Assembly: GCF_044647545.1 (NCBI RefSeq) | Contig: NZ_CP172818.1 | From: Escherichia coli | Lineage (GTDB): Bacteria > Pseudomonadota > Gammaproteobacteria > Enterobacterales > Enterobacteriaceae | Reading direction: 5' to 3' (one strand) | DNA length: 64,000 bases | Shown: positions 16,005 through 56,089 of the stretch, piece by piece | Numbering within the stretch: position 1 is the stretch's first letter | Layout: each line of letters starts with the position of its first letter | Notes under the pieces: model-generated | What the model saw: only the letters and a program-made list of their open reading frames with translations | Told to the model about the DNA's origin: nothing | Database searches by the model: none | Position numbers and translations under genes: made by a program

Positions 16005-16043
16005 CACGCTACCGCCCCTGGCTTTACAGCTACCAGAGCACTG
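16005..16043 (-). promoter_or_regulatory. JUMPstart element with ops site (RfaH recruitment) in the rfb operon leader
   Basis: Minus strand reads cagtgctctggtagctgtaaagccaggggcggtagcgtg; ops GGCGGTAGCGTG at 16005-16016. Confidence 0.85.
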
Positions 16044-22823: not shown

Positions 22824-24218
22824 TCAATATGCCGCTTTGTTAACGAAGCCCTTGAATACCGTCAGGAAAACGATTTTGATATCGAACCAGACGCTCCATT
22901 CGCGGATGTACTCAAGGTCGAACTCGACGCGTTTTTCCATTTTCTCCAGCGTGTCGGTTTCGCCGCGCCAGCCGTTAATCTGCGCCCAACCGGTAATGCC
23001 CGGTTTCACTTTATGGCGCAGCATGTAGCCTTCAATGAGCTGGCGATACTGTTCGTTATGCGCCACCGCGTGCGGACGTGGACCGACAATCGACATCCCC
23101 CCGGTCAGCACATTGATAAACTGCGGCAATTCATCCAGCGAGGTGCGGCGCAGAAAGTTCCCCACTTTGGTGACGCGCGGATCGTTCTGCGTCGCCTGGG
23201 TCACCACTTTGTCGTTCTCCATCACTTTCATCGAACGGAACTTCCACACTTTGATCGGCTTGCCATCCATGCCATAGCGAGTCTGGCGGAAAATAACCGG
23301 TCCTGGTGAACTGAGTTTTACCGCCAGCGCAATACAGCACAGCACCGGGGAGATCAGCAGCAGAATAAGCGTCGCCAGCACAATATCTTCCGCACGTTTT
23401 AGCAGGCGGTTAACCCCGGAAAGCGGCGTGTCATACAGCGGCACCACCGGTACGCCGTTCATCTCTTCGAGACGGGAATGGAGAATGTTGAAGGTAAAGA
23501 CATCGGGGATCAGCAGCACCGAACAGGTGGTGTCCGCCAGTTGATGGACCAGTTTTTTCACTCGCGCGCCGTCGCACATCTGCATCGCGATATAGACGTT
23601 ATGAATCTTGCCCGCTTTCGCATCCTCGACCAGTTGTTGCAGATTGCCCGCCCAGTCGTTAGAAACGCCGCCCGGTTTCGGGTCGTGGTAAACGCCCACC
23701 ACTTCAAACCCTAACCACGGCTGATTACGGAAGCTTTCCATCAGCATTTGTCCGGCGGCTAAATCCCCCGCTACGGCGACCATGCGTTTGTTATAGCCAT
23801 GATTACGCAGCCAGCCCGCCCCAATGCGAATACACGAACGGCAAACCACCAGTCCGATGCTGGTCAGTCCATACCACGCCAGCCAGATTTTCAGTTGCGT
23901 GTCGAAATCATTGTTAAACGCCACCAGTCCGGCGCTGAAAATCACGCTTAACGTCCAGTTTTGTAGCAACAGAGCAAATTCTGTCGATGCCCGAACACCG
24001 CGCCATGAGCGATAAAAATCGGTGATGCCGCCCAGCATCTGGAACACCACCAGCGTAATCAGCGCCACCAACAGGTGCATGTAGAGGAATGACAGTCCGC
24101 TCACTTCGCAAACCAGCCATAGTCCGGCAAACATGATGGTGATATCTGAAAAGCGTTGCACCATAGAGATTAACGATGCATTGGTTTTCGCTCGCTCGCG
24201 CTTTTTTAGATTTGTCAT
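22824..24218 (-). CDS. wcaJ: UDP-glucose:undecaprenyl-phosphate glucose-1-phosphate transferase WcaJ
   Basis: 464-aa ORF; N-terminal TM region and C-terminal sugar transferase domain. Confidence 0.9.
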   Translation of the reverse strand: MTNLKKRERAKTNASLISMVQRFSDITIMFAGLWLVCEVSGLSFLYMHLLVALITLVVFQMLGGITDFYRSWRGVRASTEFALLLQNWTLSVIFSAGLVAFNNDFDTQLKIWLAWYGLTSIGLVVCRSCIRIGAGWLRNHGYNKRMVAVAGDLAAGQMLMESFRNQPWLGFEVVGVYHDPKPGGVSNDWAGNLQQLVEDAKAGKIHNVYIAMQMCDGARVKKLVHQLADTTCSVLLIPDVFTFNILHSRLEEMNGVPVVPLYDTPLSGVNRLLKRAEDIVLATLILLLISPVLCCIALAVKLSSPGPVIFRQTRYGMDGKPIKVWKFRSMKVMENDKVVTQATQNDPRVTKVGNFLRRTSLDELPQFINVLTGGMSIVGPRPHAVAHNEQYRQLIEGYMLRHKVKPGITGWAQINGWRGETDTLEKMEKRVEFDLEYIREWSVWFDIKIVFLTVFKGFVNKAAY

Positions 24219-24272
24219 CGTTGTTCCTGTTTTTAACCCCTTACCCGCAGTGGGGTAAGGGAAGATCCGACA

Positions 24273-25643
24273 TTACTCGTTCAGCAACGTCAGCAGAGTT
24301 CGCGTTCGCGCTTCCATCAGCGGCACATCACCGCGTGATTCCACATTCAACCGCACCACCGGTTCGGTGTTGGAGGAGCGCAGATTAAAGCGCCAGTCGG
24401 CAAAGGTCATGCTGATGCCATCGGTACGATCCACCGCCAGCGCCTCGCGGCTAAAGTGCTGTTCCACGCGGTTAATCGCCTCAACAGGTTGTGCCAGTTT
24501 GCTGTTGATCTCACCGCTTGCCGGAAACGCCGCCATCCGGTCGCGCACCAGTTCGCCCAGCGTTTTTCCTTTCAGGCACACCAGTTCGGCGACCAGCAGC
24601 CACGGGATCATGCCGCTGTCGCAGTAAGCGAAATCACGGAAGTAATGGTGGGCGCTCATTTCGCCACCGTAGATGGCGTCTTCCTTGCGCATACGTTCTT
24701 TAATAAAGGCGTGTCCGGTTTTCGACATTACCGGCGTACCGCCTGCGGCAGTCACCACATCAACGGTGTTCCAGGAGAGACGCGGATCGTGGATGATCTT
24801 CGCGCCGGGATTTTTTTCGAGGAACGCTTCTGCCAGCAAACCGACAATGTAGTAACCCTCGATAAACTGCCCTTTTTCGTCAAACAGGAAACAGCGGTCA
24901 AAATCGCCATCAAAGGCAATGCCCATATCCGCGCCGTGTTTAATGACCGCATTGCGAGTGTCGTCGCGACATTCTGGCAGCAGCGGGTTAGGAATACCGT
25001 TGGGGAAATTGCCGTCCGGCGTGTTGTGCACTTTGATCAATTCCACAGGTGCGCCGAGGGCGTTAAAGCGGGCTTCGATGGCGTCCACCACCGGACCCGC
25101 TGCGCCGTTCCCGGAGTTGATCACCAGCTTGAGCGGCGTGAGGTTTTTGACGTTGATATAACCGAACAGGTGATCAACGTAAGCGTCACGCAGATTGATT
25201 TGCTGATAGCGACCGCGTTTGGTTTCATCAACGGGAGGGAAGTCGTTGGCTTCTGCCAGACGCTGGACATCGCGCAGTCCGGTATCACCGCTGATCGGGC
25301 GGGCCCCCTCGCGCACCAGCTTCATGCCGTTGTAATCCATCGGGTTATGGCTGGCGGTAACTTCAATGCCACCATCCACGCCGAGATGGAACGTGGCGAA
25401 ATAGATCTCTTCGGTGCCGGACATGCCAATATCCAGCACATCGACGCCCGCATCCTGTAAACCTTTCGCCAGCGCCAGTTTTAAGGTTTCGCTGGTGAGG
25501 CGGACATCACAGCCTAACACAATGGTTTTCGGTTTGAGAAATTCGCCATAGGCGCGACCAATGCGCCAGGCGATATCTTCATTCAGTTCTTCGCCTAATT
25601 TCCCGCGAATATCATAGGCTTTAAAGCAGGTTAATTTTTTCAT
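24273..25643 (-). CDS. cpsG: Phosphomannomutase CpsG (ManB), 456 aa
   Basis: ORF 24273-25691; start placed at [14 protein letters not shown] to match known length. Confidence 0.9.
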
Positions 25644-33539: not shown

Positions 33540-34731
33540 ACTCCTCCAGCATCTGTTGTCCACTGTAGGCGGCGCGGCTGCGCTGGCTGAACTCAGCCAG
33601 CGTGGTACCAAATATCGCCTGCGCGATTTCCGGTTTGCTTAACTGCACCAGTTGCAGCACGTCTTCTTCGCTGACGGTTTTACCACCGGATTTTTGCAAC
33701 ACTTCCCGCGCCGCGTCGCTATGGGTGGCAATCACCGGCACACCAATCGATAGCGCCTCACACAAAATCAGTGGGTAGTTATCGACGCGAGAACTAAATA
33801 CCAGCGCATCCATCTGATTGAGCGCGCTCATCAACTTGCGCTTGTCAGTTTCAAAGCCGTGATTAACCACGTTGCCAGCGGTGAACGGCGAGAACTTACC
33901 AAAGGTATGCAGTTCAATTTTGTCGCCCAGCGCCATCATCTCACGCACCAGTTGCTGGTTAGTCTTGCCGTCGTAACGCAGGTCATGCGCTACCACCGCG
34001 ATTTTCGGCTTGCCCTGAGTTTCGCGCACCGGAGGCAAGTCCACCAGAATCGCTTCGGTTGCCATATCAATGCCATTATTGATAATCCGGCAACGCCCTG
34101 GCCCGTACAGACTATTGAAAGCATCAGCCACATGCTGGCTGGGGGAAATAAACTGACAGCCCAGTGCCAGCATCTCACGGAATAACTGGCGTTTGCCCGC
34201 TACCAGCTGGTGTGCGCGATCAATCTTCACCGGCGGATAGTTATTTAAGGTCGGGCATTTCTGGCAGCCCGTTTTCCAGCCTTCGCAACCGTCGGTAAAA
34301 GCGCAGCGTCCGGTAACGCTCCAGTGGTCGTGCAGCGTCCAGACCAGAGTGACATCCGATTTGTGGTTTTTCACTTTTTCGCAAAAGCGCACCACGCTCT
34401 TAAGATTCAACCAGTAGCTGTGCAGCACATGAAAATGCAGGACCACCGGTCCCGGTGTGCGAGTAATGGTGCGATATAACTCATTGAAATTGCCGAACAG
34501 ATCGCGATTAAACAGACGAAACAGGGCAATGTTCGCCATCGCGGTCATCCGCGGCGTATGTTTGATGACCTGCGGATAGTTCTGATGGCTGACGCTCTCT
34601 TTGCCGCCTTTGCCGTAGCCGTAGACAAAATGTGACGCCAGCCCCTGTTGCAGCGCGCGCTGGTGGAGATCTAACGCCACACCTGCTGCCCCGCCTTCCG
34701 CCAGTCGCACATTGAATTGCAGAATATTCAT
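33514..34731 (-). CDS. wcaC: Colanic acid glycosyltransferase WcaC
   Basis: 405-aa ORF; 3' end overlaps the wcaD start by 26 nt. Confidence 0.85.
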   Translation of the reverse strand: MNILQFNVRLAEGGAAGVALDLHQRALQQGLASHFVYGYGKGGKESVSHQNYPQVIKHTPRMTAMANIALFRLFNRDLFGNFNELYRTITRTPGPVVLHFHVLHSYWLNLKSVVRFCEKVKNHKSDVTLVWTLHDHWSVTGRCAFTDGCEGWKTGCQKCPTLNNYPPVKIDRAHQLVAGKRQLFREMLALGCQFISPSQHVADAFNSLYGPGRCRIINNGIDMATEAILVDLPPVRETQGKPKIAVVAHDLRYDGKTNQQLVREMMALGDKIELHTFGKFSPFTAGNVVNHGFETDKRKLMSALNQMDALVFSSRVDNYPLILCEALSIGVPVIATHSDAAREVLQKSGGKTVSEEDVLQLVQLSKPEIAQAIFGTTLAEFSQRSRAAYSGQQMLEEYVNFYQNL

Positions 34732-36058: not shown

Positions 36059-36092
36059 AGGTTGTTCTCCCGGCTTATGAGCTGGTTTGCTT

Positions 36093-36129
36093 GCCGGATG
36101 CGGCGTGAACGCCTTATTATCCGGCCTAC
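36093..36129. repeat. REP (repetitive extragenic palindromic) element between wzc and wcaA
   Basis: gccggatgcggcgtgaacgccttattatccggcctac matches the REP consensus; a second partial palindrome lies at 36136-36168. Confidence 0.7.
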
Positions 36130-36153
36130 GGGGCGGTGCGAATGCAGGCGTCG

Positions 36154-55430: not shown

Positions 55431-55611
55431 AAGAAATCCTTTCTTAGAGAATTATTGAGGTCCGGTATCATACCGATTGCAATAATGAAATAAGAGCAAA
55501 CGAAGAAACTTTCAGAATTAGGCCCGGCGGCGCAGAAAATTTTGCTATTCGCCTCGCAAGAACGGAGAGCCGTCGATTGACACTAAGGGCGGAGTGACAT
55601 AATTTCAGGAG

Positions 55612-55760
55612 TGAGGGTTAGGGAGAGGTTTCCCCCCTCCCCCTGGTGTTCTTAGTAAGCCTGGAAGCTAATCACTAAGAGTATCACCAGTATGATGACG
55701 TGCTTCATCATAACCCTTTCCTTATTAAAAGCCCTCTTCTCCGGGAGAGGGTTTCCCGTT
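55612..55760 (+). ncRNA. sibA: SibA antisense sRNA (type I antitoxin of ibsA); boundaries approximate
   Basis: Plus-strand promoter TTGACA 55577-55582 and -10 near 55598-55605; terminator hairpin ccctct/agaggg plus T-run at 55731-55760; fully overlaps ibsA on the opposite strand. Confidence 0.55.
55652..55711 (-). CDS. ibsA: Type I toxin IbsA, 19-aa hydrophobic peptide
   Basis: Minus-strand ORF translates to MMKHVIILVILLVISFQAY. Confidence 0.8.
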   Translation of the reverse strand: MMKHVIILVILLVISFQAY

Positions 55761-55947
55761 TCAGCGTCCCGCTGAAATCGTCGGCTTACCTCCTTTCGCC
55801 CTGAATGCAGTCTATCGCTAACGCGTGAACAAAATAGTTTCCCCTGTGATTATTGCGTAACGTCTCGCAAAGAATATTTGCTCGCAGGATCGCAGACTAC
55901 AAAGCCTGCGGATTGACAATCTGATTGTGAAGGCATACTTTCAGGAG

Positions 55948-56089
55948 TGAGGGTAGAGCGGGGTTTCCCCCGCCCTGGTAGTCTTAGTATGCTGGCCAGC
56001 TAATCACTAAGAGCACCACGATGATGATCCACTTCATCATGACCCTTTCCTTATTTAAGGCCCCTTCCTCGGGAGGGGCTTTCCCGTTT
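55948..56089 (+). ncRNA. sibB: SibB antisense sRNA (type I antitoxin of ibsB); boundaries approximate
   Basis: Second copy of the sib repeat: promoter TTGACA 55913-55918, terminator hairpin plus T-run about 56058-56089. Confidence 0.55.
55984..56040 (-). CDS. ibsB: Type I toxin IbsB, 18-aa hydrophobic peptide
   Basis: Minus-strand ORF translates to MMKWIIIVVLLVISWPAY. Confidence 0.8.
   Translation of the reverse strand: MMKWIIIVVLLVISWPAY

Follow-up and report, generated by a model that had tools for sequence, protein, structure and literature searches.

The window analysed here, a 64-kb stretch of Escherichia coli DNA taken as a whole, contains the colanic acid cluster in the order wza-wzb-wzc-wcaABCDEF-gmd-fcl-gmm-wcaI-cpsBG-wcaJ-wzxC-wcaKLM. 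Within the cluster, cpsG and wcaJ are separated by a 54-nt spacer (24219-24272), with the stop codon of cpsG at 24273-24275 and the AUG of wcaJ at 24216-24218. On the mRNA, the spacer and its borders read UAA-UGUCGGAUCU-(UCCCUUACCC-CACUGC-GGGUAAGGGG)-UUAAAAAC-AGGA-ACAACG-AUG, where the brackets enclose a complete stem-loop. The two genes, named after the RefSeq annotation of identical E. coli sequence, and the features around them are the following.

40086-40124, minus strand: JUMPstart/ops leader of the wza-wcaM operon that contains the hairpin (RNA motif match)
24273-25643, minus strand: cpsG, colanic acid phosphomannomutase, the upstream cistron
24263-24272, minus strand: 10-nt 5' linker from the cpsG stop codon to the hairpin, variable
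24237-24262, minus strand: complete stem-loop, UCCCUUACCC / CACUGC / GGGUAAGGGG, nine Watson-Crick pairs and a closing U·G
24253-24262, minus strand: 5' arm on the mRNA, pyrimidine-rich, UCCCUUACCC
24247-24252, minus strand: hexaloop CACUGC, which differs between species and within E. coli
24237-24246, minus strand: 3' arm on the mRNA, purine-rich, GGGUAAGGGG
24219-24236, minus strand: wcaJ leader, 18 nt, unstructured and A-rich (UUAAAAAC, AGGA, ACAACG)
24225-24228, minus strand: wcaJ Shine-Dalgarno sequence AGGA; ACAGGAACAACG is conserved across genera
22824-24218, minus strand: wcaJ, undecaprenyl-phosphate glucose phosphotransferase, the initiating enzyme and downstream cistron

In CFT073 without H-NS and StpA, RfaH is bound to wza-wcaM as a single unit (PMC9765446). 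The operon holds three structured intercistronic elements, namely a REP-like palindrome, an algC RNA motif and the cpsG-wcaJ hairpin. The palindrome, GCCGGATAATAAGGCGTTCACGCCGCATCCGGC, fills the wzc-wcaA spacer (36059-36153) at about 36094-36126 on the minus strand, and is probably the stem-loop attenuator that the literature describes behind wzc for colanic acid and group 1 capsule clusters (reported by Rahn & Whitfield 2003, cited in PMC2516531 and PMC3438125). The algC motif (Rfam RF02929; 25648-25697, minus strand; 78.2 bits, gathering score 33.8) occupies the cpsB-cpsG spacer immediately 5' of the cpsG start codon, and was also found at the orthologous place in Salmonella arizonae (L006), Leclercia (L015), Enterobacter cloacae (L020) and Kosakonia (L032), the L numbers being those of the loci compared below. 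Elsewhere in the window, a second, ops-containing JUMPstart motif stands ahead of the O-antigen cluster (16005-16043, minus strand), and two tandem Sib antitoxin sRNA genes (55577-55726 and 55913-56055, plus strand; Rfam RF00113, 147.5 and 136.8 bits) presumably form an ibs/sib type I toxin-antitoxin pair.

Two simple readings of the cpsG-wcaJ junction were set aside. An internal wcaJ promoter was rejected, since no sigma-70-like site is present between 23500 and 25000 on either strand; and the absence of any step in GC content argues against a module boundary or the end of an ancestral manCB operon. No description of the cpsG-wcaJ hairpin was found in the literature that we searched.

Folding and conservation of the stem

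The original prediction had reported an inverted repeat in this spacer, and the repeat is real. On the plus strand, the repeat finder gives two arms of 9 nt each, CCCTTACCC (24238-24246) and GGGTAAGGG (24253-24261), which are 100% complementary; the loop between them measures 6 nt (24247-24252) and not five, as had been stated. A closing pair between U(24262) and G(24237) extends the stem to 10 pairs, seven of them G-C. Folding energies, for which a comparison with shuffled sequence had been suggested, are indeed distinguishable from it: the 29-mer hairpin reaches -17.0 kcal/mol (z = -3.57, matched by 1 of 200 shuffles) and the 54-nt spacer -17.3 kcal/mol (z = -2.06, 4 of 200). The hairpin is kept in both the minimum free energy and the centroid fold of a 181-nt context. 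The same 181-nt fold predicts a second helix of 11 pairs (CUGACGUUGCU/AGUAAUGUCGG; 24267-24293, minus strand), which straddles the cpsG stop codon just 5' of the hairpin, in a region that ribosomes translate through.

Membership in a known RNA family was rejected, as no Rfam covariance model hit the hairpin, even with the E limit relaxed to 10; at the gathering threshold, the orthologous slots of seven other loci gave none either. Judged from a single genome, the repeat is modestly unusual. Four perfect inverted repeats with arms of 9 bp or longer and a short loop are present in the window, where block shuffles give 1.7 +/- 1.4; the remaining three lie at 5962-5982, 33581-33602 and 59197-59221. 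The decisive case against chance is instead comparative.

A MAFFT alignment gapped the 3' arm of two Citrobacter sequences and was replaced by a stem-registered manual alignment of 17 Escherichia, Citrobacter and Salmonella sequences, with the loops padded by N. In this alignment, whose registration leans towards structure, 92.5% of the cells are paired, compared with 39-66% in controls with a slid register. Among these 17 sequences, three of the nine core pairs have changed on both sides: an A-U pair became G-C in seven sequences, a C-G pair became U-A in three (two U·G intermediates are also present), and a U-A pair became C-G in one. This corresponds to only some 3-4 compensatory events that are independent of each other. 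Covariation scores 0.224 here; shuffles give 0.140 +/- 0.017, and none of 500 is as high.

The rate of change points in the same direction. Divergence per site pair is lowest in the core stem (0.17) and higher at the wcaJ 4-fold synonymous sites (0.41), in the flanks (0.45) and in the loop (0.55), so that the stem evolves 2.4 times more slowly than synonymous sites. We also simulated neutral evolution of an ancestral hairpin (K80) along the neighbour-joining tree of the wcaJ 4-fold synonymous sites. The simulation keeps 6.07 +/- 0.54 of the nine pairs, whereas 8.64 are observed, a value that none of 5000 runs attained; with the rate set to half that of the synonymous sites, the observed pairing still has a probability of just 2e-4. 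Nine alleles from E. coli and E. whittamii differ from one another in loop sequence, in loop length and in the two linkers. Loop variants within E. coli include AUUGC, UCUGC and an extra C, and the sole stem change within the species, C to U, gives a G·U pair. Because of the covariation, the slow evolution of the stem and the neutral simulation, we conclude that the hairpin is a conserved secondary-structure element whose pairing has been kept beyond neutral expectation. The cause could be selection or, less probably, a palindrome-correcting process acting on the DNA.

We looked for signs of the strand on which the element acts. In 53-56 of about 75 loci the more stable fold belongs to the sense strand, 17 loci showing the opposite order, and the same preference appears in 26 of 34 genus groups (p = 0.003). 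Both strands of a palindrome are bound to fold, and in Escherichia the antisense hairpin has a slight advantage (-18.2 versus -17.0 kcal/mol). However, 80-nt windows inside the wcaJ coding sequence show the same sense bias (334 versus 127), and we therefore dropped it as evidence for selection on RNA. The C-arm-first polarity was discarded as a strand criterion too, since a palindrome reads C-arm first on either strand. Within the core stem, the sense strand has four G·U wobble cells, and the antisense strand would have one. This excess and the location within a transcribed operon weakly hint at RNA-level action, which we infer for the hairpin.

Occupants of the cpsG-wcaJ spacer

For a broader view, one genome per species carrying WcaJ was scanned, which gave 80 Enterobacteriaceae loci, and the cpsG-wcaJ interval, from stop codon to AUG, was extracted. 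A strong hairpin or nested palindrome fills this slot in 76 of 78 Enterobacteriaceae species. All 77 spacers that were folded are stable except that of L022 (39 nt), and a helix of at least five pairs is missing only in L003, where the stem is weakened, and in L022. In the latter locus, from Citrobacter sp. MGH106 (spacer at about 2462-2500), and in no other species, the hairpin has been lost by deletion, which provides a natural knockout comparable with its relatives. The median folding z of the cpsG-wcaJ spacer is -4.4, with 92% of species below -2. By comparison, the wzxC-wcaK spacer, taken as a control, has a median of -0.85, with 37% below -2, and is shorter than 25 nt in 26 of 74 cases.

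The occupants themselves differ widely. Simple hairpins with the arms CCCTTACCC/GGGTAAGGG occur in Escherichia, Salmonella arizonae, C. amalonaticus and C. sedlakii; those of the C. freundii group are CCYTTGCCC/GGGCAARGG, those of Leclercia, Lelliottia, E. mori, E. soli and Silvania CCCCTCTCCC/GGGRGAGGGG, and those of Kosakonia CTCTCCCC/GGGGAGAG. Enterobacter, Kluyvera, Buttiauxella, Pseudenterobacter, Phytobacter, Superficieibacter and others carry nested palindromes of 80-357 nt, and Mangrovibacter, Siccibacter, Franconibacter and Cedecea have unrelated GC hairpins, not of the BoxC type, in the same slot. The conserved unit is the whole spacer slot rather than the particular sequence of this hairpin, a point that the original prediction did not contain. 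The geometry is also regular. Spacers range from 46 to 357 nt, and the structure starts a median of 7 nt past the stop codon (75 species) and ends a median of 21 nt before the AUG (IQR 18-23), leaving free an A-rich leader and ACAGGAACAACG.

Some loci deserve separate mention. In Citrobacter youngae CCUG 30791 (L009) and Citrobacter sp. Cu233 (L011), at about 2100-2500, cpsG is deleted apart from its last ~50 nt; the remnant is fused into a short hybrid ORF (MSQIIRVTTCDICYGSVGDVRLNVRTRTLLALLNQ*), and the hairpin and the wcaJ RBS are intact. A locus labelled Chryseobacterium sp. 18061 (L075, CACSKA010000001.1) has an enterobacterial-type wcaJ (81% identity) and a Leclercia-like hairpin spacer, and is likely to reflect contamination or mislabelling.

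Relation to BoxC-type repeats

BoxC/PIT/TMECO repeats of E. coli and other Enterobacteriaceae were reportedly described by Bachellier and co-workers in the 1990s and by Hoyne and co-workers in 2000. Their consensus has three blocks, CCCTCNCCC-N3-6-GGGNGAGGG-N3-GGGNGAGGG (Holder et al. 2015, PMC4666352). That paper cites PIT/BoxC as lacking promoter or terminator activity and any demonstrated function, describes palindromic TMECO pairs as often partly deleted with a stem-loop left behind, and reports Salmonella as free of TMECO (PMC4666352). The locus studied here is not named in the supplements of that paper.

The three-block pattern has no match in the 64-kb window. Since it does not fit the hairpin, the latter is a two-block minimal hairpin of BoxC type and not a BoxC element proper, a relation likewise absent from the original prediction. 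It corresponds to blocks 1 and 2 with one compensated difference. The two share a 9-nt C-block (CCCTYNCCC), a short loop, a complementary G-block, an intergenic setting and the same slot. They differ in that the hairpin lacks the third block (the second G block), which defines the triplex-capable element, departs from the consensus at arm position 5 (C-G to U-A), and occurs in Salmonella, S. arizonae (L006) carrying it despite the reported absence of TMECO from that genus. The window has a single copy of the CCCTTACCC...GGGTAAGGG form when up to three mismatches are allowed.

Canonical elements nevertheless enter the slot. The nested palindromes described above fit the BoxC consensus, and the pattern matches the cpsG-wcaJ spacer in 18 loci (17 species loci, L001 included, and L082, a second E. 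coli strain). Most of these matches are inverted pairs, and Enterobacter, Kluyvera, Buttiauxella and Lelliottia are among the genera concerned. The pattern was also found in the wzxC-wcaK slot of 8 of 74 species (nine loci), mostly as inverted (-,+) pairs, for example at 5398-5528 in L014, 5387-5609 in L018, 5383-5466 in L051 and 5449-5538 in L077. Within E. coli, both forms are present: of 5426 complete genomes, 4639 (about 85%) have the short allele and 509 (~9%), including ST131 and E69, a BoxC allele of 127-134 nt with an element of TMECO type B. A query with the 64-nt whole spacer at blastn sensitivity, which would miss shorter or diverged copies, gave practically a single site per E. coli genome (4130 places in 4129 genomes). 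The outer arms of the long allele, CCCTCACCC...GGGTGAGGG, occupy the positions of the short hairpin's arms and are one compensated pair (C-G to U-A) away from CCCTTACCC/GGGTAAGGG of the window. The identical protein WcaJ WP_000183119.1 is encoded beside the BoxC long spacer in one genome (L082, ST-131) and beside the short-hairpin spacer in another (L086, Ecol_276); therefore, the switch between alleles is recent or recombinational.

Candidate roles of the hairpin

Our preferred reading, to which we assign a probability of roughly 0.4, is that the hairpin is a selected intercistronic mRNA stem-loop, which may act as an exonuclease barrier or segment stabiliser in the RfaH-dependent wza-wcaM transcript. 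The hairpin would leave RNA polymerase running and, once the transcript is complete, obstruct 3'-to-5' exonucleases such as PNPase and RNase II. Their point of entry would be either further downstream or an end created by endonucleolytic cleavage of the A-rich single-stranded linker 3' of the stem. The upstream wza...cpsG segment would thereby be stabilised relative to the distal wcaJ-wcaM segment, and expression levels would differ on either side of the gene for an initiating, potentially toxic, membrane enzyme. The wcaJ RBS would stay open because the 18 nt unstructured leader is always kept. By analogy, the position of the stem just outside the footprint of a terminating ribosome, the A-rich linker, the free RBS and the exchangeable palindromes would all fit a classical stabiliser.

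Intercistronic REP stem-loops reportedly stabilise upstream mRNA, as Newbury and co-workers are said to have found for malE-malF in 1987. The likeness of the cpsG-wcaJ hairpin to such REP/BIME stabilisers lies in a GC-rich stem-loop without a U-tract, placed in an untranslated gap of a polycistronic mRNA. However, its stem is shorter and belongs to another sequence family, and its stabilising activity is presumed by us. The REP consensus is an imperfect palindrome of the GCCGGATG...CATCCGGC type, and the hairpin is unrelated to it in sequence, unlike the REP-like element of the wzc-wcaA spacer. The hairpin joins two known kinds of element, the intercistronic stem-loop and the BoxC-type palindrome. 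An extension that we put forward only tentatively holds that the cpsG-wcaJ junction is a selected hairpin slot, for which BoxC/PIT/TMECO repeats, inverted pairs and collapsed minimal hairpins would be interchangeable occupants.

Among the other explanations, a role in transcription must be considered, the hairpin having the size and stability of an intrinsic terminator (10 pairs, a 6-nt loop, -17 kcal/mol). It differs from one in lacking a U-tract, in lying within an operon directly before an RBS and in having an A-rich tail. As the original prediction had noted, no U-tract adjoins the stem, which is followed by GGGG-UUAAAAACAGGAACAACG-AUG, and the terminator scan omits the site; at least five T in 8 nt after the structure are found in only 2 of 77 species, the other 75 having at most four, and the tail is about 49% A across related species. 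Termination proper was rejected on these grounds. The poorly expressed genes cpsG and wcaJ, like wcaA and wzc, have no entries in the searchable Term-seq supplements of PMC7815308. A weaker version would be a transcriptional attenuator or pause site that reduces read-through into wcaJ-wcaM and is overcome by RfaH. RNA polymerase modified by RfaH resists hairpin-dependent pausing and termination, and this resistance, together with the missing U-tract, makes termination unlikely. In favour of attenuation, the operon is RfaH-dependent and a stable GC-rich hairpin stands directly 5' of an initiating transferase gene. The post-wzc stem-loop offers a parallel as an intra-operon hairpin in a polysaccharide operon under RfaH/JUMPstart control, located directly upstream of the initiating transferase gene (wzc-wbaP) in the cps clusters of K30 and Klebsiella (PMC2516531 and PMC3438125). 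The cpsG-wcaJ hairpin sits instead at another junction (cpsG-wcaJ and not wzc and the next gene) and has no U-tract. Overall, we regard attenuation as quite improbable. Of the proposal that the element serves RNA stability or processing rather than termination, the second half is supported by the absent U-tract and the RfaH-bound operon. The first half, probably the best of the readings considered, fits a pairing under selection, as judged from covariation, slow change of the stem and presence in nearly all species.

A doubtful account makes the hairpin a functionless remnant of BoxC. Elements would insert into permissive gaps, inverted pairs would collapse to hairpins by internal deletion, and the pairing would be kept by template switching that corrects quasi-palindromes in the DNA and not by selection on RNA. 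Much of the BoxC evidence agrees with this: the arms are one compensated pair from those of BoxC, canonical TMECO/BoxC occupies the slot in 509 genomes of E. coli, in about 18 of the 80 scan loci and in the ST131 record L082, and BoxC lands in the wzxC-wcaK slot too. The TMECO paper reports pairs collapsing to stem-loops, with no known function and no promoter or terminator activity (PMC4666352), the folding bias of the sense strand is matched by coding windows, and L022 tolerates the loss of the hairpin, which is dispensable at least there. On the other hand, 76 of 78 species have an occupant in the slot, whereas the comparable wzxC-wcaK slot is often empty; the stem is slower than synonymous sites by the factor given above and neutral simulation never reached its pairing; distant genera (Mangrovibacter, Siccibacter, Franconibacter and Cedecea) hold non-BoxC hairpins at this place; Salmonella, reportedly free of TMECO, has the hairpin; and G·U intermediates are tolerated, although templated correction of DNA would be expected to erase such wobbles. 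We consider it rather unlikely that the hairpin is a device serving wcaJ translation, either insulating the RBS from upstream sequence and from ribosomes terminating on cpsG or, as a processed 5' stem-loop, protecting wcaJ-wcaM from 5'-end-dependent decay by RNase E. The narrow distance from structure to AUG at any spacer length, with ACAGGAACAACG never covered, would suit such a device, as would the persistence of the hairpin with wcaJ where nearly all of cpsG is gone (L009, L011) and the complementarity of UUCC in the C-rich arm to GGAA in the Shine-Dalgarno region, by which an unpaired arm could occlude the RBS. Yet any gap-filling palindrome that spares the RBS is expected to give the same geometry, and we saw no sign of a conserved switch to pairing of the arm with the Shine-Dalgarno region. 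Finally, a chance repeat devoid of biological meaning is scarcely credible: the count of four in the window is not far above that in shuffles, but the covariation, the slot conservation, the slow evolution of the stem and the neutral simulation effectively refute it.

Other regulatory models were also rejected. A two-site CsrA model, in which the hairpin would bridge a GGA in the 5' linker and ACAGGA at the Shine-Dalgarno sequence, fails because this GGA is not conserved in E. whittamii and Citrobacter. An RNA thermometer or Shine-Dalgarno-sequestering switch does not fit a stem that excludes the Shine-Dalgarno sequence, is too stable and shows no conserved alternative pairing. A sequence-specific protein operator is unlikely, as the arms change by compensation and unrelated palindromes substitute for them in other genera.

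Under the stabiliser reading, the hairpin may bear on the economy of colanic acid synthesis, in which the export and sugar-nucleotide genes upstream of the junction are needed in other amounts than the initiating transferase and flippase genes downstream of it, and in which an excess of WcaJ ties up undecaprenyl phosphate. An intercistronic hairpin would be a simple way of setting such amounts within one 20-gene transcript, and the natural E. coli alleles, short and BoxC, constitute a ready-made pair for comparing capsule-gene expression. Should the hairpin be inert, the site would still illustrate cleanly how palindromes turn over and collapse at one fixed locus. To our knowledge, BoxC elements have gone without an assigned function for about 30 years. 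If the slot reading is true, they may have been recruited into long polysaccharide operons as intercistronic RNA modules serving as insulators or stability barriers. The comparative pattern, a junction that always holds some GC palindrome while BoxC comes and goes, would then give BoxC a concrete and testable job.
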